From Eubacteriales bacterium (lineage in GTDB: Bacteria; Bacillota; Clostridia; Oscillospirales; CAG-382): a stretch of DNA of 64,000 bases. Under the pieces are notes generated by a model that ran no database searches, was not told the DNA's origin, and was given only the letters and a program-made list of their open reading frames with translations. Where the stretch lies: positions 5,339-69,338 of the forward strand of contig JAQVPJ010000009.1 of assembly GCA_028702135.1 (NCBI GenBank), written 5' to 3'. The translations under genes and the position numbers were made by a program. Of the stretch, positions 7,883 to 64,000 are shown piece by piece. How positions within the stretch are numbered: the first letter of the stretch is position 1; every line of letters starts with the position of its first letter.

Positions 7883-7965
7883 TGGTGCGGCTAATGGGAA
7901 TTGAACCCATACGGTTGCCCACACGCCCCTCAAACGTGCGCGTCTGCCAGTTCCGCCACAGCCGC
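7883..7965 (-). tRNA. tRNA-Leu (anticodon GAG)
   Basis: Cloverleaf folded by hand. Acceptor stem is GCGGCTG/TAGCCGC. Anticodon stem CACGT/GCGTG carries loop TTGAGGG (anticodon GAG, plus-strand 7929-7931). A long variable arm, T-arm ATGGG-TTCAATT-CCCAT and an encoded CCA are present. Confidence 0.92.
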
Positions 7966-48578: not shown

Positions 48579-48752
48579 TTGAGTCCAAAGGAATTACTTT
48601 ATATAGAGGACGCGTTGAACCATGAAAGTTTTCTAAAAACGCAGTGTCAGGAATGCGCAAACCAGCTTAGTGATCCGGTTTTAAAAAACTTTGTCAACGA
48701 GTTATGCCACAAACGCGGCGAGATTTTCAATGAGCTGTACCGTACTCTATAA
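48579..48752 (+). CDS. Small CotF-like spore coat protein (57 aa, below the ORF-track size cut-off)
   Basis: TTG start lies 6 nt after AAGGAGGTG. MSPKELLYIEDALNHESFLKTQCQECANQLSDPVLKNFVNELCHKRGEIFNELYRTL looks like a half Coat-F domain. It sits immediately upstream of a second CotF-like gene. Confidence 0.55.
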   Translation: MSPKELLYIEDALNHESFLKTQCQECANQLSDPVLKNFVNELCHKRGEIFNELYRTL

Positions 48753-48773
48753 ATTTTAGAAAGGACTAATAAA

Positions 48774-49022
48774 ATGGATGATAAATCCTTGATGGAGAGC
48801 TTACTCATTACGGTAAAGGGCGCGAGCGGTATCTATTATCACGGAATGGTTGAGTCCTCAACGGCAAATGTACGCAACACTTTCGACAACGCCCTGTCGA
48901 AAACCCTGCAGATGCAGAACGATATTTTTTGCAGAATGAGGGACAAGGGCTGGTATCAGACTCAGCCGGTCGATCAGAAGCAGATAACGCAGACCGCACA
49001 AAAATTTGCACAGATGCAATAG
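48774..49022 (+). CDS. CotF-like spore coat protein
   Basis: 82-aa protein with the Coat_F pattern (DDKSLMESLLITVKGASGIYYHGMVESSTANVRNTFDNAL...GWY). Confidence 0.65.
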   Translation: MDDKSLMESLLITVKGASGIYYHGMVESSTANVRNTFDNALSKTLQMQNDIFCRMRDKGWYQTQPVDQKQITQTAQKFAQMQ

Positions 49023-49040
49023 GATAGAACGATTCGGATA

Positions 49041-49090
49041 AAAAATCCCGTTTTTCTCATATCCATATGAGTTAAGCGGGATTTTTCTTT
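49041..49090 (+). terminator. Intrinsic terminator after the CotF-like genes
   Basis: Outer stem AAAAATCCCG / CGGGATTTTT, inner stem CTCATAT / ATATGAG, and a T-run. Confidence 0.7.
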
Positions 49091-49136
49091 GCTTCCGCAC
49101 ATTTTATGCGGAATGGATAAAAGAAAAAATTCGCTA

Positions 49137-49165
49137 TTGACAAACATAAGATTAACCATTATAAT
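49137..49165 (+). promoter_or_regulatory. Consensus sigma-A promoter of the T-box-like leader
   Basis: TTGACA (49137-49142), 17-nt spacer, TATAAT (49160-49165). Confidence 0.65.
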
Positions 49166-49189
49166 GGCAAATACCAGTATATTGACAAA

Positions 49190-49447
49190 TGCACAGACGA
49201 GGACACGAGCTACATAAGAAAAGGTATCAGAGAACTGCCGTAAGGTGCGAGGCAGTAGCCATCTTTTGCATAGCTTATCACCTCCGAGCAGCAATGCCGA
49301 AATTGATTCCGTACGAATTATATTAAGCATTGACGGAACACTCCGCCGTATTAATGAGGAGAGGCGTTGATTAGACGCAGCAAATGAGTGGTTAAATGAG
49401 GAACCCTTTACAGGACTTCATCTCGTTGCAGAGGAAGTTCTTTTTTT
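49190..49447 (+). promoter_or_regulatory. T-box-like transcription-attenuation leader (candidate Ile specifier AUC)
   Basis: Folded by hand. Stem I-like element 49190-49290 has base UGC..GACGAGG / CCUCCGAGCA, AG-type bulge AUCAGAGA, and distal loop GUAAGGUGCGA. The antiterminator AAUGAG-[UGGUUAA]-AUGAGG...CUUCAU-CUCGUU spans 49383-49427. It competes with terminator GGACUUCAUCU / AGAGGAAGUUC plus U7 (49413-49447), about 10 nt before the RBS. Confidence 0.65.
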
Positions 49448-49469
49448 ATTTTTCGAAAGGAGTTTATTT

Positions 49470-51746
49470 ATGGGAAATCAAACAAAGCTGATAGCTTCAC
49501 GTCTTAAATGGGCACGTACAAACACCGATTTGTCTGTAGCGCAGATTGCAAAAGCATGTGACGTTGACGAGCAAAAATACCTTACTCTTGAGGAGGGTAA
49601 TGACGACTTCTCCTTCACATTTCTCTACAAGGCAGCTCTTGCTCTGAAAATGGATATTTCAGAGCTTGTATCGGGGGATAACCCAAAGCTCAGCTTTTTC
49701 AATGTTACCCGTGCAGGCGAGGGTATGCCGATCAAACGCAGAGAGGGCTTTAATTACCGGCACATGGCGCCCCTGTTGAAAAACAGAGCATCCGAACCCT
49801 TTATAGTAACTGCAAAATTTCAGCCCGATCAGCAGGATATGCCTATTCCGCTCTCAACACACAGAGGGCAGGAATTTGATATGGTTATCAAGGGTACGCT
49901 TAAAGTGCAGCTCGATGACCATATCATAGTGCTCAGGCAGGGAGATACCGTTTACTACGATTCCTCTCACCGCCACGGTATGATTGCCGTCGACGGCGAG
50001 GATTGTACCTTCCTTGCTGTTGTGTTCAAAGCAGAGGGAGAAACAGCGACGGATATTGAACCTATGCCGGTTGAACGCAAACCTGAAAAAGAGGGTGTAC
50101 ATGATGCTGTTTATGACGGACTTATCTACAAGCAGTACGTCACAGAAACCCTTAACGAGGACGGCACGCTCAAAACATTTGAAATGCACCCGACACCTGA
50201 CTTCAATTTTTCATACGATGTGCTTGACGCGCTTGCGGAAAAGATTCCGGATAAGCGGGCAATGCTATGGGTTTCCGCTAAAAAAGAGGAAAAATCCTTT
50301 ACATTCTCTGAAATGAAAAGGCTTACCAATCAGACCGCAAATTATTTCAAATCGCTCGGAATCGGATACGGAGACAGGGTAATGCTCGTATTAAAGCGTC
50401 ATTATCAGTTCTGGATGGCGATTTTAGCGCTTCATAAGTTAGGAGCGGTTGCTGTTCCGGCGACAAACCTTTTGTTGGAGAAAGATTATATCTACCGCTT
50501 TGATGCGGGTCAGATAAAAGCTATCGTATGCACCGCCGACGGAAACTGCGCACAAGAGGTTGACAAGGCGGCATTAAAATGCCCCTCCTTAAAAATTAAA
50601 TCACTCGTTAGAGGCTCACGCGAAGGGTGGTCGGATTTTGACGCGGAGGTTGCAAAGCAAAGCGATGTATTTGAACGGATTAAGACAAGCAAGGACGATC
50701 CTTCGATAATGTTCTTCACCTCAGGTACTACAGGATACCCCAAAATAGCGACACATACGGCAACCTATCCCATAGGGCATATAATTACCGCCCGCTGGTG
50801 GCACAAGGTAAATCCGGACGGCCTGCACCTTACCGTCGCCGATACAGGCTGGGGCAAGGCGTTGTGGGGCAAGCTTTATGGGCAATGGTTCTGCGAGAGC
50901 GCAATATTCGTATATGATATGGATAGGTTCAGCGCAGACGATCTGCTTCCGATGTTTTCAAAATATAAAATAACCACCTTCTGCGCACCGCCTACAATAT
51001 ACCGGTTTCTCATAAAGGAGGATCTGACAAAATACGATCTTTCCTCCATAGAGTACGCAACCACTGCAGGAGAGGCTCTTAATCCCGAGGTTTTCAACCG
51101 ATTCAGGGAATACACCGGGCTTACGATTATGGAGGGCTTCGGTCAGACAGAAACCACCCTCTCTATATGTAATTTAATCGGCACCACGCCCAAGATAGGC
51201 TCTATGGGACGCCCGAGTCCCGCCTATGATATGCATATACTGCGCGAGGACGGAACCGAAGCGGAGGTAGGCGAGGTCGGAGAAATTGTAGTCCGCACAA
51301 AAAAAGAGACCTGTGGACTTTTCCTCGGATATTATCTGAACGAAGAAAAAACAAAGGAGGTCTGGTATGACGGCTATTACCACACGGGCGACACCGCCTG
51401 GTTAGATGAGGACGGCTTTTACTGGTATGTAGGTAGGACAGACGATGTTATCAAATCAAGCGGATACCGCATAGGTCCGTTTGAAATCGAAAGCGTTATC
51501 ATGGAGCTCCCATATGTTCTCGAGTGTGCGGTTACGGGTATTCCCGACGAAATAAGAGGAACGATTGTAAAAGCAACCGTTGTTCTTACAAAAGGTAAAC
51601 AACCGAGCGGCGAGCTTGTCAAGGAAATACAGGATTATGTGAAGAGCAAAACTGCTCCCTATAAGTACCCCAGAAGAGTTGAATTCGCCGATTCGCTACC
51701 AAAGACGATCAGCGGTAAGATAAGACGGGTGGAATTGAAAAACTAA
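49470..51746 (+). CDS. HTH(XRE)-cupin-acyl-CoA synthetase fusion (AMP-forming, medium-chain-type)
   Basis: Residues 1-70 form an XRE HTH (LSVAQIAKACDVDEQKYLTLEEG). Residues 90-185 form a cupin (GQEFDMVIKGTLKV...GDTVYYDSSHRHG). The remainder is an adenylate-forming enzyme (FFTSGTTGYPK, GFGQTET, YHTGD, GRTDDVIKSSGYRIGPFEIES, PKTISGKIRR). Confidence 0.88.
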   Translation: MGNQTKLIASRLKWARTNTDLSVAQIAKACDVDEQKYLTLEEGNDDFSFTFLYKAALALKMDISELVSGDNPKLSFFNVTRAGEGMPIKRREGFNYRHMAPLLKNRASEPFIVTAKFQPDQQDMPIPLSTHRGQEFDMVIKGTLKVQLDDHIIVLRQGDTVYYDSSHRHGMIAVDGEDCTFLAVVFKAEGETATDIEPMPVERKPEKEGVHDAVYDGLIYKQYVTETLNEDGTLKTFEMHPTPDFNFSYDVLDALAEKIPDKRAMLWVSAKKEEKSFTFSEMKRLTNQTANYFKSLGIGYGDRVMLVLKRHYQFWMAILALHKLGAVAVPATNLLLEKDYIYRFDAGQIKAIVCTADGNCAQEVDKAALKCPSLKIKSLVRGSREGWSDFDAEVAKQSDVFERIKTSKDDPSIMFFTSGTTGYPKIATHTATYPIGHIITARWWHKVNPDGLHLTVADTGWGKALWGKLYGQWFCESAIFVYDMDRFSADDLLPMFSKYKITTFCAPPTIYRFLIKEDLTKYDLSSIEYATTAGEALNPEVFNRFREYTGLTIMEGFGQTETTLSICNLIGTTPKIGSMGRPSPAYDMHILREDGTEAEVGEVGEIVVRTKKETCGLFLGYYLNEEKTKEVWYDGYYHTGDTAWLDEDGFYWYVGRTDDVIKSSGYRIGPFEIESVIMELPYVLECAVTGIPDEIRGTIVKATVVLTKGKQPSGELVKEIQDYVKSKTAPYKYPRRVEFADSLPKTISGKIRRVELKN

Positions 51747-51776
51747 TCACAATATAAATATATTCGTGGAAAAATG

Positions 51777-51807
51777 CGGAGAGTCGGGTTTGACTCTCCG
51801 TATTTTG
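51777..51807 (+). terminator. Intrinsic terminator
   Basis: Stem CGGAGAGTC-GGGTTT-GACTCTCCG followed by TATTTTGT. Confidence 0.75.
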
Positions 51808-51833
51808 TACGTCTTTTAAGAAAGCGGACTGTT

Positions 51834-52496
51834 TTATCTGATTGTACTGTCGGAGTTTTTTACCGTTTCGATGTATTTCTGCACGTTCTCAAGACCATAG
51901 GCTTCTCCCGCTCTTCTTCCCCTATAAGAACAATAGATAAAAGCAGCTGTAATCAGTAAGGAGTATACGATAATGAACGCAGCTAATTTATCATTGATCC
52001 CCGTTATTACAAAGTTGTTTACCCTTATGTCGTCTTGGGCAATTTCTTTCAAAACATTGTGCTTGTTTACCACACCGAAAACCGAGGCAGTCAGCGCTGA
52101 CGGATACCAAAACTGCGATGCAAATATCCCGCAGAAATGAGTGCCGGTTCCCATATACATATTTATTATATAAATGATTGTTCCGCTTAGAACTGTCTGT
52201 GTTTTAACTTTTTTTTCGGGCTGTACTATCCTCGCCTTGTAAGCAATCTTATAGCCCGCAATATAGCTTGTCAAATACCCTGCTATAATAAACGATATTA
52301 TTGTTACGGCTCCCATTGCAGGATAAACCACATTGAACAAGTACGAGGCATCTGCATGAAGCTCGACGATAGTCGGTGTTTTTATAAAAAAAGAAACTAT
52401 TAACCGAGTGAAAAATGGTAAAATGGATGCAATAAACATTGATAAGGTAAAAATTACGATACCGAAGAAAAAACCGTCATACTTTTTTTCATACAT
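51834..52496 (-). CDS. Polytopic membrane protein, unknown function
   Basis: 220-aa ORF with about five hydrophobic helices. No family recognised. Confidence 0.55.
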   Translation of the reverse strand: MYEKKYDGFFFGIVIFTLSMFIASILPFFTRLIVSFFIKTPTIVELHADASYLFNVVYPAMGAVTIISFIIAGYLTSYIAGYKIAYKARIVQPEKKVKTQTVLSGTIIYIINMYMGTGTHFCGIFASQFWYPSALTASVFGVVNKHNVLKEIAQDDIRVNNFVITGINDKLAAFIIVYSLLITAAFIYCSYRGRRAGEAYGLENVQKYIETVKNSDSTIR

Positions 52497-55633: not shown

Positions 55634-56263
55634 TTATCGGTTTTTGCCAATCTGTTCCGAAAGGTGATTTGACAAGACGGCAAGGGATGCGGCCATATTC
55701 TCATTTTGAACAAGAATTCCATCGGGTACTTTAAGATGAACAGGTGCAAAGTTCCATATAGCAAGCACTCCGCTCTCCACCAAAAGATCGCATACCTCCT
55801 GTGCCGATGCGGCGGGAACGGTTATTATCCCTATCTTTATTTTCATCCTGCCGCATATCTCCTTGAGCCTGAAAATAGGTAAAATAAGCTCCTGCTCGTT
55901 CACGACATCCGGATTTTGATCAAAGGCAAGCAAAATATTAAGACCGTATTCCTTAAATCCGGTATAACCCATCAATGCCCTGCCCAACTTGCCCGCTCCG
56001 ACGATAACAGCGTTGTTATTATTGTCATAACCAAGAAAAGCGACCAGCTCTCTGATCAGGTCTTCGGTATTGTAGCCGATTTTCGGTTTCCCCGACGTGC
56101 TTACGCACGCTAAGTCCTTACGTACCTGAACATCGTTAAGCCTTAATTCCTCCGCAATGGCGGTAGCAGATATGTTTATTACCGTGTCGGGCAGGGATTT
56201 GAGATAATTAAGATAAAGCGGCAGCCTTTGCAGGGTGGATTTTGAAATATTCTGATTCGACAT
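55634..56263 (-). CDS. rex: Redox-sensing transcriptional repressor Rex
   Basis: N-terminal winged helix (TLQRLPLYLNYLK) and a Rossmann NADH domain (VIVGAGKLGRAL). Confidence 0.92.
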   Translation of the reverse strand: MSNQNISKSTLQRLPLYLNYLKSLPDTVINISATAIAEELRLNDVQVRKDLACVSTSGKPKIGYNTEDLIRELVAFLGYDNNNNAVIVGAGKLGRALMGYTGFKEYGLNILLAFDQNPDVVNEQELILPIFRLKEICGRMKIKIGIITVPAASAQEVCDLLVESGVLAIWNFAPVHLKVPDGILVQNENMAASLAVLSNHLSEQIGKNR

Positions 56264-56576: not shown

Positions 56577-58793
56577 ATGAAGTTCAACGACGGAAAATGG
56601 CAGCATCATATCGATGTACGGGATTTTATCGTATGCAATTATACGCCGTATGACGGAGATGAGAGCTTTCTTGCAGATACGACAGAACGCACTGCCATGT
56701 TATGGGAAAAAGTAAAGGTTCTTATGGAAAAAGAGCGTAATAACGGCGGTGTTCTCGACATTGATGAACATACTATTTCTACGATTACCGCTCATAAGCC
56801 GGGCTATATCGATAAGGAACTTGAGGATATAGTCGGCTTGCAGACAGACTCGCCCTTAAAAAGAGCTATTATGCCATTTGGCGGTATCAGAATGGTAAGG
56901 TCCTCCCTTGAGGCCTATGGCAGGGAGATGGATCCCGAAGTCGAAAAGATTTTCAAATACAGAAAAACGCATAACGACGGCGTTTTCGATGCATATACAG
57001 AGGATATGAAAAAAGCACGCAGGAGCGGGATAATTACGGGACTGCCGGACGCATACGGCAGAGGCAGAATCATCGGCGATTACCGCAGAGTACCGCTTTA
57101 TGGCGTGGACTTTCTAATAAAGCAAAAAGAGCAGGCGAAGAAAGACTTTGTTTTTGATCTCATCAACGAGGATATTATCCGCCAGCGTGAGGAGATTTCC
57201 GAACAGATAAAAGCACTTAAGGAACTCAAGGAAATGGCAGCTATGTACGGCTTCGATATTTCCAAGCCCGCACAGGACACAAAAGAAGCTATCCAATGGC
57301 TTTATTTCGCATATCTTGCCGCTACAAAGGAACAGAACGGCGCAGCTATGTCTATCGGCAGAATTTCGACCTTTCTCGATATATATGCGGATAATGACCT
57401 CGCCGCCGGAAGATATACCGAAACCGAGATTCAGGAGTTTGTGGATCATTTTATCATGAAGCTGCGAATGATTCGATTTCTGCGTACGCCCACATATGAC
57501 GAGCTCTTTTCCGGAGACCCGATCTGGATAACCGAATCGATCGGCGGTGTCTGTATCGACGGCAGACATATGGTTACTAAAATGTCATACCGTTTCCTCC
57601 ATACACTTATTAACCTCGGAGCAGCGCCAGAGCCGAACATGACAGTGTTATGGAGCCAGCGGCTACCGGAAAACTTTAAAGCGTACTGCTCGAAGATTTC
57701 TATAAGAACCTCCTCGGTACAATATGAGAACGACGATCTTATGCGTGTTGAATACGGTGACGATTATGGTATCGCCTGTTGTGTGTCCGCCATGAGAATC
57801 GGAAAGATGATGCAATTTTTCGGCGCGAGGGCGAATCTCGCAAAAGCTCTGCTTTACGGTCTTAACGGCGGTAAGGACGAGATCAGCGGAGAGCAGGTAG
57901 GTCCCGAAATGGCATTGATCAAATCGGATGATACTCTTGACTTTGATGAGGTCTGGAGAAAATACGATCAGATCTGCAACTGGCTGTCGAGACTATATAT
58001 CAACACCCTTAATATAATCCATTACATGCACGATAAATATTGCTATGAGCGCATTCAGATGGCGCTGCATGACGAACGTATTTTCAGAACCTCCGCCTGC
58101 GGTCTTGCCGGTCTTTCTGTAGTGACCGATTCTCTGAGTGCCATAAAATACGCCAAGGTGCATCCCGTCAGAAACGAGCAGGGCCTGACAACAGACTTTA
58201 TCATAGAAGGCGATTATCCGAAGTTTGGGAACAATGATCCGAGGGTTGATGAGATTGCAAGAAGCGTGGTCGAGCATTTTATGGCAAAACTCTCAAAACA
58301 CAGCACTTACAGGAACTCTAAACCGAGCATGTCGATTTTAACTATTACGTCAAATGTTGTATATGGTAAAATAACAGGATCGACACCTGACGGACGAAAA
58401 AAAGGAGAACCCTTTGCTCCCGGTGCAAATCCGATGCACGGCAGGGACTCCAACGGCTGTGTGGCTTCTATGATGTCAGTCGCTTCGCTTCCTTATGAAT
58501 TCTCAAAGGACGGAATCTCATATACATTTTCCATAATTCCCGGCTCTTTGGGTAAGGATGATCAGCAGCGTACTGATAACCTTTGTTCTTTGCTTGACGG
58601 TTATTTTGCTGAGAACGGTCATCATATCAATGTGAATGTTATTAACCGCGAGGTCCTTATTGACGCGATGGAGCATCCCGAGCTTTATCCCCAGCTTACT
58701 ATCCGCGTTTCGGGATACGCAGTGAACTTCATCAAGCTCAACAGAGAGCAACAGATGGATGTTATAAACCGTACTTTCCATACAAGATTTTAA
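56577..58793 (+). CDS. pflB: Pyruvate formate-lyase (formate C-acetyltransferase)
   Basis: Glycyl-radical motif RVSGYAVNF near the C-terminus, active-site Cys pair (ACCVSAM), and PFL length. Confidence 0.93.
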
Positions 58794-58816
58794 GCGTTAC
58801 GCAAAGAGAGGTTAAT

Positions 58817-59545
58817 ATGGGCAACGCTGTCAAAGGCCGCATTCATTCTCTGGAAACCTTCGGCGCAGTCGATGGTCCGGGATTGCGTTTCGTCATATTC
58901 TTTCAGGGCTGTCCTCTGCGATGCCTGTACTGCCACAATCCCGATACTTGGGATACGCAAGAAGGCAGTGAAATTACAGCGGAAGAGCTGATCGCCCGGA
59001 TTTTAAGATACAGAAGTTTTATAAAAAAAGGCGGAGTCACGCTCACGGGCGGCGAACCTCTGCTGCAGAGCAGGTTCGCACAGGAGATAATCAGGCTCTG
59101 CAGGGAAAACGGCTTGCATACCGCTATCGATACCTCCGGTGCAGTTCCGCTTTCGGTATGTAAATCTGCTGTCGATGCGGCAGACTTAATCCTTTTAGAT
59201 ATAAAAGCGATTGATTCCGCACTTGCGAAAAAGCTTACCGGAGCAGGAAACGAGAATGCGCTGAAGCTTCTTGATTATTGCGAGGAAACAAACAAGGATG
59301 TCTGGATCCGTCATGTTCTTGTTCCGGGCTGGACTCTGGACAAAGCTCAGGCAAACCGTATGGGAATATTCCTGAAAAAATACCGATGCGTCAAAAAAGT
59401 CGAGCTGCTCCCCTTTCATAAGATTGGCGAATTTAAATGGGAAAAGCTGTGTATCGAGTATTCACTGACCGATACGCAACCGCCCGAACCTGAAAAGGTT
59501 GACGAAATAAAACAGATACTGCTGTCACACGGATTGGTGTTATAA
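58817..59545 (+). CDS. pflA: Pyruvate formate-lyase activating enzyme
   Basis: Radical SAM CxxxCxxC motif (CPLRCLYCHNPDTW) and GGVTLTGGEPLLQ. It lies directly downstream of pflB. Confidence 0.92.
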   Translation: MGNAVKGRIHSLETFGAVDGPGLRFVIFFQGCPLRCLYCHNPDTWDTQEGSEITAEELIARILRYRSFIKKGGVTLTGGEPLLQSRFAQEIIRLCRENGLHTAIDTSGAVPLSVCKSAVDAADLILLDIKAIDSALAKKLTGAGNENALKLLDYCEETNKDVWIRHVLVPGWTLDKAQANRMGIFLKKYRCVKKVELLPFHKIGEFKWEKLCIEYSLTDTQPPEPEKVDEIKQILLSHGLVL

Positions 59546-59607: not shown

Positions 59608-61962
59608 TTACGCATACAGATCATATGTACCTAAGAAATGTCTTTTTATCTTTAAATAATCCGAAGCCCTTGAGGTCACGCCATCCGAAATGGCAGCGGC
59701 TCTGTTCTGGTTATTGTCGGGAGTATATGTTCCGAGAAAGATACGCTTTGTTATCAGGTAGTCGACGCTGCTTATTTCTCCGTCACCGTTCGTATCACCC
59801 TTTATAACGACGGTATAACTGAATATTCCGTTAGAAATAATACATCCGGTGCCGATTTTCTTGTTGTCATCAAGAAGAGAACCGCTTTTATCCCTGACTG
59901 TAACTGTTCCGTCTAAAAGCGTTTTTGCCATCTCAGCGGTCATACTCTGCGTACCGCCGGAGCAAAAACCGATAGCGGTGTTTCCCTCAATCACAAAATA
60001 ATTTTTTATCGCCAAACCGCTTCGCAGAGCGTTTTTCGTTATTATCCTTATAAATTCCAAATCGTCGAGCAACGCTTTCTTTGCCGCTTTATTTGTGAGA
60101 GTGTTAACGGTGGAAACCGCACTTTCAATATCGTTAATGACCTGATTGAACAACGATTTCTCTGCTGTTGCTTTGATAATGTTCAGTTTTGCTTTAATCG
60201 AACTCGCCTGTGCGGGTATTATACCTTGAAGCGGTAAAATCACCTCGTCAATTCGTGTAATCGCATCTTCGGTAAGAATCAGTACTGCGTTTCTTTCATT
60301 GAGGGTGGGGGGTATCGCCCGGTTACGGTAAAGGGATTTATTTAATATCTCACCGACTTCTTTTCTCAAAAACGCGCTCGCCTCAAAAAATACCGAACCC
60401 GAAGCCCCGATTCTTGCCATATCCTCTGCCTGTTCTGCTAAATCCTCTGAACTGAGCATATCCAAATAAGCACCGAGACCGACACCCACATAACAGTCTT
60501 CGGCTATATTTACAAAATCCTCCATAAGGTTTGTATACCCGATACCGTATGCCATCGGGTGAATCATATCAAGATAACCTTCTCTAAGCCAGGTGACGCT
60601 GTCCTGATATATGTTCTCGTATCCGCTTTCGTAATAGGCCGAAACATCCGCACTCAAAAGTACGTCCGGATTCACCTCATCGATTAGATTTCTTACCGAT
60701 TTCACCATATCGGTGACGAAACCGGCTCTGAATGCTACCCAATCGTCCCAATAGGACGCTTTTTTATTGTAGGACGGGGTAACACAGTACTTAGCTCTGA
60801 AGGCAGACGTAGTAATGCTATCATATCCGAAATCCACCTCCCCGCTGGAGTAGTAGCGGATATAGTCGAGCTGAAATCCGTCGATATCGTATTTTGTAAG
60901 TATATATCTGTATGTATCGATAAGGAACTTCTTTACCTCGGGATTTGCGGGACTCAGAAAGACAAATTTCGATTCATCACCCGGTGAATAGTACTGACCT
61001 GTGTTTGACACAGTACGCCATTCGGGTTTTTTTACGCCGACACAGGCGGTGTTATCCAATCCGTGTCCGACATAATACACGGGCATCCAGATGTGAAGCT
61101 CCATATCCCGTGAATGGCAGGCGTCAATAAAAGCCTGCAGCATATCAAAGCCTTTCCATAACGGATTCTGTTCGAACAGACTATCCTCAGGCATGGGCAT
61201 TATCATCGTCGAGCTATATAGCGTTTCTATGCATATCATATTTATACCCGCATCATAGAGCTGTTGGACATAATTCTCAACCGCTGTGGTCGTTGTCTGA
61301 GTCGGTCGTATCCATACTCCTCTCATTTCCACTCCGCTGCTCTCGCTGCAAAGTCCCTTTATTTCTGTTATCTCAGCAAACAAAGGTGCAGAATTCTTAC
61401 TGAGATCATACGATTTATCCGAGTTATATGCGGTGAGCAACAGCTCATATTCATCATCAACCGCCTCTATCCGCTGCATAAGACCGCTGTAATCGATAAT
61501 ACGGTAAGTCGACCTCGCATTAAAATACGCGTCCTTCATCGCTAAAATCTTCAAATCAAGATGGGTTAGAAGAGTATCGTTATCATATGTAAAAGTAACG
61601 GATTTGTTTGTGTAGGATGCTTTCATTCCTATCAAAACGTTTTTCTTCAACCATTCTATCGATGTTCCATGACCGGATACGACAAAAGAGCCTTCATCCG
61701 ACGGAATACTATTGTTGTTTCCGCCGACAGATGTTACTACCCCGGCGGTAACTACCACCTCATAACCGTATATATTGGTGTTTGTATTGCTGCCTCGGAC
61801 ATTATAAACAACCATATAGTTGGTATTTCGTACGACATTTATACCGTTTATAGCAGTAGACACACTGTAAGAAGCCGCATTTACCTTTAGAGTAACCTGA
61901 GGTAATAAGCCGACCAGCAAAATCAAAACCACCAGCAACGACACTCTCTTAATTCTTTTCAT
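59608..61962 (-). CDS. Secreted GHL10 (DUF187, family 10 glycosylhydrolase-like) protein with C-terminal dockerin
   Basis: A signal peptide and an N-terminal beta module (FVVSGHGTSIEWLKKN) are present. The GHL10-like TIM-barrel core is RGVWIRPTQ...YVQQLYDAGINMICIETLY...FDMLQAFIDACHSRDMELHIWMPVYYVG...DGFQLDYIRY. The C-terminus has two dockerin repeats (GDTNGDGEISSVDYLITKRIFLGT and SDYLKIKRHFLGT). Confidence 0.75.
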   Translation of the reverse strand: MKRIKRVSLLVVLILLVGLLPQVTLKVNAASYSVSTAINGINVVRNTNYMVVYNVRGSNTNTNIYGYEVVVTAGVVTSVGGNNNSIPSDEGSFVVSGHGTSIEWLKKNVLIGMKASYTNKSVTFTYDNDTLLTHLDLKILAMKDAYFNARSTYRIIDYSGLMQRIEAVDDEYELLLTAYNSDKSYDLSKNSAPLFAEITEIKGLCSESSGVEMRGVWIRPTQTTTTAVENYVQQLYDAGINMICIETLYSSTMIMPMPEDSLFEQNPLWKGFDMLQAFIDACHSRDMELHIWMPVYYVGHGLDNTACVGVKKPEWRTVSNTGQYYSPGDESKFVFLSPANPEVKKFLIDTYRYILTKYDIDGFQLDYIRYYSSGEVDFGYDSITTSAFRAKYCVTPSYNKKASYWDDWVAFRAGFVTDMVKSVRNLIDEVNPDVLLSADVSAYYESGYENIYQDSVTWLREGYLDMIHPMAYGIGYTNLMEDFVNIAEDCYVGVGLGAYLDMLSSEDLAEQAEDMARIGASGSVFFEASAFLRKEVGEILNKSLYRNRAIPPTLNERNAVLILTEDAITRIDEVILPLQGIIPAQASSIKAKLNIIKATAEKSLFNQVINDIESAVSTVNTLTNKAAKKALLDDLEFIRIITKNALRSGLAIKNYFVIEGNTAIGFCSGGTQSMTAEMAKTLLDGTVTVRDKSGSLLDDNKKIGTGCIISNGIFSYTVVIKGDTNGDGEISSVDYLITKRIFLGTYTPDNNQNRAAAISDGVTSRASDYLKIKRHFLGTYDLYA

Positions 61963-62062
61963 AACAATATACCTCCCCGTTTAAAACGGCAGTCATCGTG
62001 AATATACCGTCTTCCCGCAGAAAAAACGATATCGTTCCTAATGACCGCCGCTGTTTTTTTTG

Positions 62063-64000
62063 TTATTTGTTTTTCTTTTTCTTTATCAGTAACGCAGCGA
62101 GCACGCCGGCAGCCGCTATAACCGCAACTATGACTACCGGAACAATCCATCCCTTTGCGGGCGGTTTTTCCGCAACCGGTTGCGAGGACGGCTCGGACTC
62201 GGGTGCGCTGCTTGTGTAAGCGGATACCTCGTAGTCATCGGGCACTCTCTTAGCGATCTTGGCAATCTTGCTCGCATAATCAAGGTCAGTATTAAGAGCA
62301 GTCTTTGCATTTGCGTTTTCGAGCGAATCGATAGCGTTTTTTGCTGCGCTAAAGGAGTCATCCGGTGTTTTTTCTGCATTAATATCGGCTATTACAGCGT
62401 CAAATGCCTTCTTTACGATGTTTGCCTCCTCCTCAGACATTCCCGAAAGAGGTAAAATCACTTCGTCAATTCTACCTTTGGAATATTCAAGTACGGCGAT
62501 GGTGGCGGCAGCTTTATCAAATGTGGGCGTTATCGCCTTTTTTTTGTAAATGCTCTTTAGCAGTACGCCGCCTGTGCCCTTTCCAAGATAAGCCGATGAC
62601 TCGAAAAACGAAGAACCTTCCGCACCGAGAGAATTAACCATCTTTGAATGCCTTAACATATCGGCAGCGGTATATTCATTCATAAATACACCGAGCCCGA
62701 CAGAAATGAAAACATCGTCTCCGCAGTTCGCCACCTGAGCAGCTATCTCGTCCTCAAAACCCTCGCCGTAGGACATTGGATGAAGAAGATCAAGATAACC
62801 CTCATCTAACCATGTCATATAGTCCTGATAAAGATGATTATAAGCGTCCTCGATGTTTGGACCTACATCGGCGCTTAACAAAACCGAAGGATTGACCTCG
62901 TCGACCAAATCCCTTACCTTTTTTACCATCCCGGTAACATAATTTGTTCTGAAAGCGACCCATTTTTTCCAGTATGCCGCTTTGGGTTCGTATCTCGGTT
63001 TTATTCCGTATTCGGCTTCAAAAGCAGAGGTGGTTATCTCGTCATAACCGAAATCACAACCCTCAAGATTCGTCCAATAGCGAATATAATCAAGCTCAAA
63101 ACCGTCTATATCATATTTGGTAAGTATATACCTGTAGGTGTCGAGCAGAAATTGAGTAGCCTCCTCGTTTGCCGGATTGAGCATCTGAAAGCCGCCTGTA
63201 TCGTTCGGAGCATAATTACCGCCGAGGTTGGTAACAGAAAGCCATTCTTTCTTTTGGGTTGCAACGCTGAGCTGTACATAAGTGTCGCCCTTCATGCCTA
63301 CAAAGTATACGGGCATCCAGATATGGAGTTCCATATTTCTTGAATGGCAGGCGTCGATATAAGCCTGGAGCATATCAAAGCCCTTCCAGCCCGGATTCTG
63401 TTTGAACAGACTTTCTTCCGGCATGGGCATTATCATAGTGCTGTCATAAAGTGTTTCTATGCTTATCATGTTTATGCCCGCATCATAAAGCTGCTGAACA
63501 TAGCTCTCAACCGCTGTTTTTGTTTTTTGGGTAGGACGTACCCATACTCCCCTGTATTCCACCGTTCGGCTTTCGGTCAACAGCTGTTTTGCCTCGTCGA
63601 GTAATCCTATTATTTCCGAGCTCGCCGAGTCGAAGTCTTCTAACTTGCCGCCGTTTTCATAAGCTTCAATCGCTGTGTCGAAAGCAGTTCTCGTCTCGTC
63701 GAGCTTGCTTTTCGCCGCTTGGTGATCTATATATCTGTAATTATCGGAAGCTGCTTTATAATCATTTTCAAGCTGTTCGATTTGTTTTTTTATACCATAG
63801 GTTACGGAATGCTCGTCATAAACGAATGTAATCTTTTTGCTGCTGAGATCATAGCTGACAGACATGCCCAGCTTTATATTTTTTTTGAGCCATTCAACAT
63901 GTATTCCATGTCCGGATACAACAAAGCTTCCTTTTTTGTTCGGGATAAGATTATTATTGCCGCCCACCGAAACAACTCTATTCTCCTCAACTACAACTTC
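62063..64000 (-). CDS. GHL10 (DUF187) paralog with C-terminal transmembrane anchor (5' end beyond the window)
   Basis: It has the same core as the neighbouring gene, and nucleotide stretches are visibly alignable by eye. The C-terminus is a Ser/Pro-rich linker plus a TM helix and KKKKNK instead of a dockerin. The frame stays open upstream of the ORF-track start (EVVVEENRVVSVGGNNN aligns with the paralog), so the gene continues past 64000. Confidence 0.75.
   Translation of the reverse strand, partial: EVVVEENRVVSVGGNNNLIPNKKGSFVVSGHGIHVEWLKKNIKLGMSVSYDLSSKKITFVYDEHSVTYGIKKQIEQLENDYKAASDNYRYIDHQAAKSKLDETRTAFDTAIEAYENGGKLEDFDSASSEIIGLLDEAKQLLTESRTVEYRGVWVRPTQKTKTAVESYVQQLYDAGINMISIETLYDSTMIMPMPEESLFKQNPGWKGFDMLQAYIDACHSRNMELHIWMPVYFVGMKGDTYVQLSVATQKKEWLSVTNLGGNYAPNDTGGFQMLNPANEEATQFLLDTYRYILTKYDIDGFELDYIRYWTNLEGCDFGYDEITTSAFEAEYGIKPRYEPKAAYWKKWVAFRTNYVTGMVKKVRDLVDEVNPSVLLSADVGPNIEDAYNHLYQDYMTWLDEGYLDLLHPMSYGEGFEDEIAAQVANCGDDVFISVGLGVFMNEYTAADMLRHSKMVNSLGAEGSSFFESSAYLGKGTGGVLLKSIYKKKAITPTFDKAAATIAVLEYSKGRIDEVILPLSGMSEEEANIVKKAFDAVIADINAEKTPDDSFSAAKNAIDSLENANAKTALNTDLDYASKIAKIAKRVPDDYEVSAYTSSAPESEPSSQPVAEKPPAKGWIVPVVIVAVIAAAGVLAALLIKKKKNK

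Follow-up and report, generated by a model that had tools for sequence, protein, structure and literature searches.

A T-box leader with a rewritten core upstream of an acyl-CoA synthetase fusion gene: probable isoleucine specificity and a proposed link to 2-methylbutyrate activation

The window analysed here is a stretch of 64,000 nucleotides from a Eubacteriales bacterium (GenBank assembly GCA_028702135.1, contig JAQVPJ010000009.1, positions 5,339 to 69,338). It carries a gene for a 758-residue fusion protein, in which a helix-turn-helix (HTH) and a cupin domain precede the two AMP-binding domains of an acyl-CoA synthetase, and this gene is headed by an untranslated leader with the architecture of a T-box (Rfam family RF00230). 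An earlier reading of the DNA by eye and without database searches (the sequence-only reading) had noted a promoter, a Stem I-like element with a bulge and a loop, a candidate AUC-A specifier, an antiterminator, a terminator and a ribosome-binding site, and every one of these coordinates is borne out by the sequence of 48700-49700. Stem II, Stem IIA, pseudoknot IIB and Stem III are elements beyond that list, and all of them have covariation support. The promoter matches the consensus at 12 of 12 positions and is the sole perfect site within 48700-52000. The features of the locus are as follows.

49137-49165 (+), sigma-70-type promoter: TTGACA 49137-49142, 17 nt spacer, TATAAT 49160-49165
49185-49447 (+), complete transcriptional T-box leader, between the perfect sigma-70 promoter and the 758-aa gene
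49188-49291 (+), T-box Stem I: K-turn-type base, specifier internal loop, AG bulge, distal helix and distal loop
49190-92 (UGC) and 49199-202 (GAGG) with 49281-84 (CCUC) and 49288-90 (GCA) (+), K-turn-type base of Stem I
49226-33 (+), AG bulge of Stem I, AUCAGAGA
49240-50 (+), GGUG-containing distal loop of Stem I, GUAAGGUGCGA, with the distal helix ACUGCC/GGCAGU
49277-79 (+), specifier AUC (Ile), followed by A 49280, directly 5' of the CCUC strand
49292-49332 (+), Stem II: CAAUGC 49292-97 with GCAUUG 49327-32, GAAA after the 5' strand
49333-49349 (+), Stem IIA hairpin: ACGG 49333-36 with CCGU 49346-49
49341-49361 (+), pseudoknot IIB: loop CUCC 49341-44 with GGAG 49358-61
49364-49378 (+), Stem III: GCGU 49364-67 with ACGC 49375-78, 7-nt loop
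49383-49427 (+), antiterminator: helix A1 AAUGAG 49383-88/CUCGUU 49422-27, helix A2 AUGAGG 49396-401/CUUCAU 49416-21
49389-95 (+), antiterminator bulge UGGUUAA, 7 nt, whose UGGU is predicted to pair with the tRNA ACCA end
49413-49440 (+), intrinsic terminator hairpin, 10 of 11 positions paired, with a U7 tract at 49441-47
49458-62 (+), ribosome-binding site AGGAG, 7 nt upstream of ATG 49470, read from the sequence
49470-51746 (+), fusion protein, 758 aa: HTH (~9-70), cupin (126-185), AMP-binding (256-622) and AMP-binding_C (672-750), by Pfam

The resemblance to a T-box is significant and extends over the full length of the family model. A sensitive Rfam scan of 471 nt (49050-49520) matched RF00230 at 49185-49428 with 57.3 bits (E 5.6e-12), though below the curated gathering threshold of 93 bits, and the next-best family reached E 0.058. 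The alignment puts AGAGA, GGUG, the K-turn strands, Stem II, the IIA hairpin, Stem III and GAGUGGU at their model positions. The AG bulge and the distal loop, which form the platform for the tRNA elbow, are both present, as is the K-turn (GA) motif at the base of Stem I, where the model is matched by GC/ACAGAC/GAGG and CCUC/CGA/GC. On its 5' side the small specifier loop has AC or ACAC (2-5 nt) and on its 3' side N-AUC-N (4-5 nt); as far as the sequences indicate, the specifier loop of this family is unusually small, or minimal. The AGUA element that relatives have in Stem II is degenerate in the window (UUAAGC). The free-energy fold of the whole leader is uninformative (z -0.87). The fold of its 3' domain is specific: when the RNA is cut before the 3' strand of the terminator, the minimum-energy fold of 49380-49428 is exactly the proposed antiterminator (-9.6 kcal/mol), and in the full 3' domain the terminator hairpin (-11.2 kcal/mol alone, z -3.0) replaces it. 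The mutual exclusion of the two structures, suggested by eye, is thus reproduced as a computed two-state fold of the window sequence itself. The motif CUUCAUCUC is common to both hairpins. An alternative pairing of UGC at the base of Stem I with a second GCA, given by the free-energy fold, was rejected, since covariation in the 46-leader alignment described below favours the first GCA, inside GAGCA.

The same full-length fusion (53-68% identity) occurs in at least 160 loci among the matches listed in one-genome-per-species and metagenome scans. No relative above 68% identity was among these listed genome and metagenome matches; closer ones came from the protein database. The orthologous loci are labelled L001-L160 and the closer relatives L161-L169. 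Among the matches listed, the hosts are mostly Oscillospiraceae, Ruminococcus, Acutalibacteraceae and related gut or rumen Clostridia, including R. flavefaciens SAb67 and Neglectibacter timonensis, and R. flavefaciens (L060), a classical example of a species that needs branched acids, has both the Ile leader and the gene. Among the species-representative loci listed with at least 400 nt of upstream sequence, 63 of 72 have the leader, and the nine leaderless ones include members of the Victivallales and Lentisphaerae. In most loci AGAGA lies about 280 nt before the start codon, GGUG about 15 nt further on and a T-run 60-90 nt before the start; the 3' halves hold the canonical core AAUUUGAGUGGUACCGCGGG...CUCGUCUCAAAG, and nine of the 19 orthologous leaders tested pass the curated RF00230 cutoff (94-107 bits).

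The helices proposed for the window are conserved and covary in these orthologous leaders, in Stem I as well as in the antiterminator and terminator. In a Stem I alignment of 46 leaders, compensatory double changes occur at 17 of the 19 consensus pairs; among the basal pairs, GC is replaced by AU in 13 sequences and AU by GC in nine. AGAGA is invariant and GGUG nearly so, and the helix between them covaries. For the 3' domain, 50 leaders were aligned without being fitted to any structure, and the resulting counts carry four misaligned rows, in which MAFFT set the CUCGU (A1) of the window clade against the canonical CUCGU (A2): the antiterminator is 94.3% paired (slid controls 40-57%) and the terminator 95.1%, with eight of its 12 pairs doubly changed, a count as high as which was reached in 0 of 500 shuffles. 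Slid controls for both structures together span 30-57%. The lineage of the window was analysed separately.

Amino-acid specificity was read from Stem I. A covariance model of this stem (R1) has the leader as its single match in the window (74.2 bits), and its search against the window and the 160 loci returned 154 Stem I elements, in which the specifier was taken to be the triplet that precedes the basal helix with one base between. This column holds AUC in 112 elements and GUA (Val) in 34; the remainder (UAC, UUC and others) belong to unrelated neighbouring genes. The AUC that had been picked out as the best candidate is constant across 112 leaders whose flanking bases vary, A, C, G or U all occurring after the codon, and this variation on both sides excludes the frames UAU, UCA and CAC. 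That the switch reads another tRNA through one of these neighbouring frames (UAU for Tyr, UCA for Ser or CAC for His) is extremely unlikely, given that AUC alone is invariant and that the sister clade reads GUA in the same columns. This possibility draws on the base after the codon, which in the fusion-gene leaders is not always the canonical purine, and on the fact that position-based calls can mislead, as in an unrelated leader at L146:651-751 (-). There, a T-box with a similar Stem I and the loop UAC-UUC-UCC precedes a DAHP-synthase-like gene, and the position rule gives CUC, at odds with the aromatic amino acid expected from such a gene.

The antiterminator bulge is nearly uniform. The UGGN element seen in the window is UGGU in 143 of the 147 family leaders, Ile and Val classes together. 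Bacterial tRNA-Ile and tRNA-Val both generally have A73; the tRNA-Val(UAC) encoded in L077 ends in ...CCCC-A-CCA (A73), matching the UGGU of the Val-type leaders. The third-position C of AUC agrees with the 'C-rule' of T-boxes (PMC7778990). The RF00230 match, the covariation and the invariant AUC and UGGU bear out the candidate Ile T-box of the sequence-only reading at the level of sequence and make it very probable that the window carries a functional, Ile-specific T-box. Tyr (UAC) and Phe (UUC) T-boxes with canonical S-turns flank some orthologous loci [L014:6953-7200 (-), L024:7117-7219 (-), L056:5481-5583 and L075:620-721 (-)], and a lysine riboswitch lies in the flank of another (L068:6119-6293).

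The T-box sequence proper had been described as degenerate, and it is, as a trait common to the lineage of the window: the canonical core is missing from the window, L001 and L081-84, and more distant orthologues hold the canonical AAUUUGAGUGGUACCGCG. The upstream DNA of the closer relatives found in the protein database (86-70% identity to the window protein) was fetched, and ten leaders (window, L161, L162, L163, L166, L167, L168, L083, L082 and L001; proteins 64-86% identical to that of the window) were aligned. TTGACA is kept at the equivalent place in the lineage relatives. All ten leaders share a variant in which GAGUGGUU is followed by variable bases and then by an A/U-rich A2 helix; the ACC-GCG of the conserved T-box sequence AANNNGGGUGGNACCGCG is replaced (GAGUGGUUAAAUGAGG), and UGGU and the bulged two-helix fold are kept. 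AGAGA, GGUGC, UUAUCACC and CUUCAUCUC are invariant or nearly so. With the full structure derived from the window, including the IIA/B pseudoknot, 91.7% of cells pair compared with 39-60% for slid partners, a percentage that is biased upward because the structure was taken from one of the sequences. The compensatory changes are free of this bias: 21 of 58 pairs have changed on both sides, pairing persists in each of the 11 helices, and none of 500 shuffles reaches the observed values. In Stem II all six pairs are 100% paired and four are doubly changed, and in pseudoknot IIB three of four pairs are doubly changed, with the variants CUCC/GGAG, GCUC/GAGC, GCUCA/UGAGC and UUUUC/GAAAA. Stem III is 100% paired and varies little.

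Double-sided changes under which the helices stay paired indicate purifying selection on structure, not decay. The alternative, that the leader of this lineage is a decaying T-box without tRNA sensing, acting as a constitutive partial terminator or not at all, is very improbable; it would account for the degenerate core and the sub-threshold Rfam scores throughout the lineage and for the two relatives without a T-box leader, and has to be set against the invariant AGAGA, GGUG, UUAUCACC and GAGUGGUU, the 11 paired helices and the 21 doubly changed pairs. In the first of these two relatives (L164, 1-1200; protein 77% identical to that of the window) the start codon lies 66 nt downstream of the end of a cohesin-domain gene; in the second (L169, 850-1200; 70% identical) only a hairpin remnant resembling the terminator of the lineage is left. 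The lineage variant is, on the evidence of these alignments, a maintained and structured T-box rather than debris, though one that can be lost. It shows how far the 'invariant' T-box sequence drifts with all helices kept, and such drifted copies, being sub-threshold in Rfam, would be overlooked by routine annotation.

The protein encoded downstream of the leader is closest to characterized branched-acid enzymes of the ANL superfamily, whose two-domain architecture (AMP-binding and AMP-binding_C) it shares. In the N-terminal part Cupin_2 is significant in Pfam, and HTH_19 and HTH_31 fall just under their cutoffs, so that the XRE-type HTH is weak. The catalytic part (residues 232-757) is nearest to PDB entry 3ETC (MacsMa of Methanosarcina acetivorans), with 667 bits against 365 for the next structure and 54% identity over 521 residues. 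The two proteins align end to end across both AMP-binding domains, and Trp259 of MacsMa, described as critical for acyl binding, corresponds to W444 of the window protein, assuming a one-residue numbering offset. The archaeal enzyme differs in having no HTH-cupin module, the alignment beginning at window residue 232. The T-box leader is not known outside bacteria, and none would be expected on the MacsMa gene. MacsMa prefers 2-methylbutyrate and completes the reaction to the CoA ester with this acid only (PMC10455477). The best NCBIfam model is MbcS (NF047394, 460 bits), an enzyme that activates 2-methylbutyrate and isobutyrate but not isovalerate (PMC10026030). On these similarities the window protein is probably a Macs/MbcS-type branched C4/C5 acid-CoA synthetase. 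Database names for its relatives are generic ('AMP-binding protein' or 'acyl-CoA synthetase'). One NCBI record (P0013, 520 aa, with 100% identity and 69% coverage) begins at an internal methionine and drops the HTH-cupin part (window 49470-50183, residues 1-238); the reading frame is open from 49470 and orthologues conserve the N-terminus.

Further evidence on the substrate comes from a paralogue. In at least 15 loci a GUA (Val) T-box directly follows the stop codon of the AUC-controlled gene and is itself followed by a second copy of the fusion (L042:5337-7921, L051:5310-8250, L096, L104, L106, L107, L122, L133, L137, L142, L143, L150, L154, L155, L017, L076, L156 and L158), the Val specifier reading GUA-G. 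One such product (L042:5633, 762 aa) shares 55% identity with the window protein along its whole length. A neighbour-joining tree was built from 118 full-length proteins. The 13 that have Val leaders form a monophyletic group containing no Ile-leader protein, and the window protein groups with the Ile-leader proteins. Riboswitch specificity thus tracks paralogue identity, and the Ile/Val pair of leaders matches the substrate pair of MbcS, 2-methylbutyrate and isobutyrate. No Leu-type leader was found before the fusion gene family among the 154 Stem I hits in the window and 160 loci, which parallels the lack of isovalerate from the MbcS substrate range. Two CUC (Leu-like) hits were considered as family leaders and rejected, belonging to the DAHP-synthase-like gene (L146) and to a different AMP-binding fusion (L070). 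The latter hit (L070:2410-2510, -) is a canonical Leu T-box (GAA-CUC-A, S-turn), divergent from the Ile-controlled gene, and precedes a fusion of a xylose-isomerase-like TIM barrel (AP_endonuc_2) with an AMP-binding domain that is 24% identical to the window protein; this might be a leucine-linked acid-activating enzyme. Taken with the 3ETC identity and the MbcS model, the Val-leader clade supports the branched-acid activation suggested from the sequence alone, indirectly but strongly.

Only four residues cleanly separate the Ile- from the Val-leader proteins: T50A and K54R in the HTH, V353L and G462A (residues 50, 54, 353 and 462; window 49617-19, 49629-31, 50526-28 and 50853-55, +). The first two changes hint, at sequence level, that the N-terminal module also differs between the paralogues. 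G462 follows a conserved GW; every Ile-type protein has Gly here, and 92% of the Val-type proteins have Ala. By the motif W-[I/V]-T-G-H, this position may correspond to the pocket residue Ile312/Val310 of acetyl-CoA synthetase. The acetyl-CoA synthetase residue is a known specificity determinant (PMC3477478), and G462A may narrow the acyl pocket.

These observations also bear on a reading in which the Ile T-box is functional and the enzyme acts on another short acid, mainly propionate, whose CoA ester would be reductively carboxylated to 2-oxobutyrate and so enter the normal isoleucine pathway. Such a route from propionate to isoleucine occurs in some anaerobes. The window protein falls under every NCBIfam equivalog cutoff, including those of propionate-CoA and acetate-CoA ligases, and the 3ETC enzyme adenylates C3 to C8 acids, propionate among them, yet completes the two-step reaction to the CoA ester with 2-methylbutyrate only (PMC10455477). 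Propionate would moreover leave the Val-specific clade with no analogous straight-chain precursor, whereas the pair of 2-methylbutyrate and isobutyrate explains both clades, and Gly in the Ile type against Ala in the Val type after GW fits a substrate difference of one carbon, if this residue lines the acyl pocket. A propionate-type substrate is, for these reasons, improbable.

From the architecture of the leader, its covariation, the Ile specifier, the enzyme family and the Val paralogue, we infer a response to tRNA, a substrate and a metabolic fate that together give a coherent scheme. We consider it reasonably likely, as a whole explanation, that 49172-49469 is a class I (transcription-attenuating) T-box that reads tRNA-Ile and gates 2-methylbutyrate activation for isoleucine synthesis. 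Transcription would start after the consensus promoter, and Stem I would bind tRNA-Ile(GAU) through the AUC specifier (49277-79) and the platform of AG bulge and distal loop. The ACCA end of an uncharged tRNA would pair with UGGU (49389-92) and stabilize the antiterminator, allowing RNA polymerase to read into the gene; with charged tRNA the more stable terminator (49413-47) would form and transcription would stop about 25 nt before the ribosome-binding site. The PuuR-like HTH-cupin and Macs/MbcS-type synthetase fusion would then convert 2-methylbutyrate to 2-methylbutyryl-CoA, which during isoleucine scarcity would feed isoleucine synthesis from the exogenous acid by reductive carboxylation and transamination.

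The purpose of the activation is a separate question. Branched volatile acids serve the synthesis of isoleucine, leucine and valine in rumen anaerobes and methanogens (PMC10658910; PMC7356843, citing Allison and colleagues), for which reductive carboxylation is a documented route, and the acyl-CoA could feed isoleucine synthesis, the priming of anteiso fatty acids, or both. In the lipid version the same Ile T-box and enzyme would salvage 2-methylbutyrate as an anteiso fatty-acid primer when isoleucine is scarce, the Val paralogue supplying isobutyryl-CoA for iso-even fatty acids. MbcS, the best NCBIfam model, has its established role in supplying branched-chain fatty acid primers, as in Staphylococcus aureus (PMC10026030; PMC11167679). 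The Ile and Val specificities without Leu mirror the aC5/iC4 selectivity of MbcS, and no oxidoreductase is linked to the gene among the 128 neighbours scanned. Ruminococci are reported to incorporate branched acids both into amino acids and into lipids (Allison, Bryant and Doetsch, 1962). On the other side, the supply of lipid primers would be sensed only indirectly through the charging of a tRNA, and the T-boxes surveyed govern aminoacyl-tRNA supply through synthetases, biosynthesis genes and transporters (PMC2494555; PMC3766115). The logic of the T-box favours the amino-acid purpose, to which we give somewhat better than an even chance; a lipid purpose in its place appears unlikely, and the two are compatible, the acyl-CoA being their common intermediate.

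Several observations weigh against the scheme of an Ile T-box that gates 2-methylbutyrate activation for isoleucine synthesis. The window leader stays under the RF00230 gathering threshold (57.3 against 93 bits), with no T-box hit at the curated cutoff, and all eight lineage relatives are likewise full-length but sub-threshold matches (47-81 bits). Inspection of the sequence shows no AGUA/GAA S-turn, a feature of the Rfam consensus, in the specifier loop of Stem I. Other bases stand in place of the ACC of the bulge and the GCG of helix A2, both usually invariant, and the terminator is modest (-11.2 kcal/mol, one mismatch). The loss of the leader from L164 and L169 makes it dispensable in some genomes. 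No tRNA-Ile gene with which anticodon and discriminator could be compared lies in the window or in any locus (61 sources). For the protein, the MbcS equivalog cutoff is well above the score obtained (850 against 460 bits), which makes it an MbcS relative rather than an orthologue in the sense of NCBI, and the scheme assigns no role to the HTH-cupin module. Among the 128 neighbouring genes scanned there is no 2-oxoacid:ferredoxin oxidoreductase, and an aminotransferase (class IV, branched-chain) occurs in one locus only, so that the step from the acyl-CoA to isoleucine lacks genomic support in these neighbourhoods.

Compared with class I T-boxes of RF00230 such as those of B. subtilis tyrS and glyQS, the window leader is alike in its K-turn base, in the specifier beside the basal helix on the 3' side of the loop, in the AGAGA bulge and GGUG loop, and in Stem II, the IIA/B pseudoknot, Stem III, the UGGN-bulged antiterminator and the overlapping U-tract terminator. 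It differs in three respects. As its target it has an acyl-CoA synthetase fusion rather than a transporter, a biosynthetic operon or an aminoacyl-tRNA synthetase; in the lineage, UGGUU, variable bases and an A/U-rich helix take the place of the near-universal UGGNACCGCG, which lowers the scores to 47-81 bits; and the specifier loop of the family is small and without the AGUA/GAA S-turn, unlike that of the Tyr and Phe T-boxes in L014, L024, L056 and L075. No acyl-CoA synthetase is among the T-box targets in three surveys (PMC2494555; PMC3766115; PMC7778990) or in the literature searched, an earlier listing in TBDB being possible. The leader is thus a member of the T-box family with an unreported class of target, a minimal specifier loop and, in the lineage of the window, a rewritten core. 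Among enzymes, MbcS of S. aureus has the substrate pair (2-methylbutyrate and isobutyrate) that matches the Ile/Val T-box pair of the fusion genes, and differs in lacking the HTH-cupin fusion and in its described role of lipid primer supply. The N-terminal 190 residues align over the helix-turn-helix and cupin with PuuR-type regulators (PDB 1Y9Q, HTH_3 family), a weak similarity (E 0.006); in the window protein this module is fused to an enzyme, and its binding of DNA or a ligand is only putative.

Many fibre-degrading anaerobes of the rumen and gut need isobutyrate, 2-methylbutyrate or isovalerate, and such acids are fed to ruminants in practice. The leader suggests how gut and rumen bacteria switch on the scavenging of branched short-chain acids as isoleucine runs short. 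We propose tentatively, as an idea with slightly less than an even chance, that gut and rumen Clostridia have a dedicated tRNA-charging regulon that turns these acids back into branched-chain amino acids, in which 2-methylbutyrate and isobutyrate paralogues are gated by Ile and Val T-boxes and the HTH-cupin module serves as a second layer of control. No gene is named in the literature searched for the first step of branched-acid assimilation in these Clostridia. If the proposal is true, it would identify the enzyme, long missing, through which branched acids enter the carboxylation route to amino acids described in the 1960s; the T-box regulon would extend to carboxylic-acid activation, and a T-box core would have been largely rewritten, with UGGU alone retained, and still function. 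Which amino acid a T-box reads also labels the function of its gene without recourse to protein homology; in this case it places a widespread, generically named protein in isoleucine metabolism and its sister clade in valine metabolism.

The neighbours of the fusion gene in L001-L160 are heterogeneous, with no conserved partner. Recurrent ones are Amidohydro_2 proteins in about nine loci, ACT-domain proteins in four and sodium:solute symporters (SSF) in three to four, and also in L161. Cohesin or dockerin genes lie upstream of the leader in relatives of the window, which suggests that the lineage bears cellulosomes. The surroundings in the window itself are unrelated to the fusion gene and comprise Rex, pyruvate formate-lyase with its activase, GHL10 proteins and polysaccharide synthesis genes. 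The remaining features noted are the following.

7883-7965 (-), tRNA-Leu(GAG), the sole tRNA gene of the window and its only Rfam match at the curated threshold
55634-56263 (-), Rex-type redox repressor (Put_DNA-bind_N and CoA_binding), adjoining the next feature
56577-59545 (+), pyruvate formate-lyase and radical-SAM activase
59608-63967 (-), two GHL10 proteins

Upstream of the T-box promoter, an inverted repeat (AAAAAUCCCG...CGGGAUUUUU) at 49030-49085 follows a CoatF-domain open reading frame (48774-49022); it is probably the terminator of that gene, separating it from the promoter of the leader.

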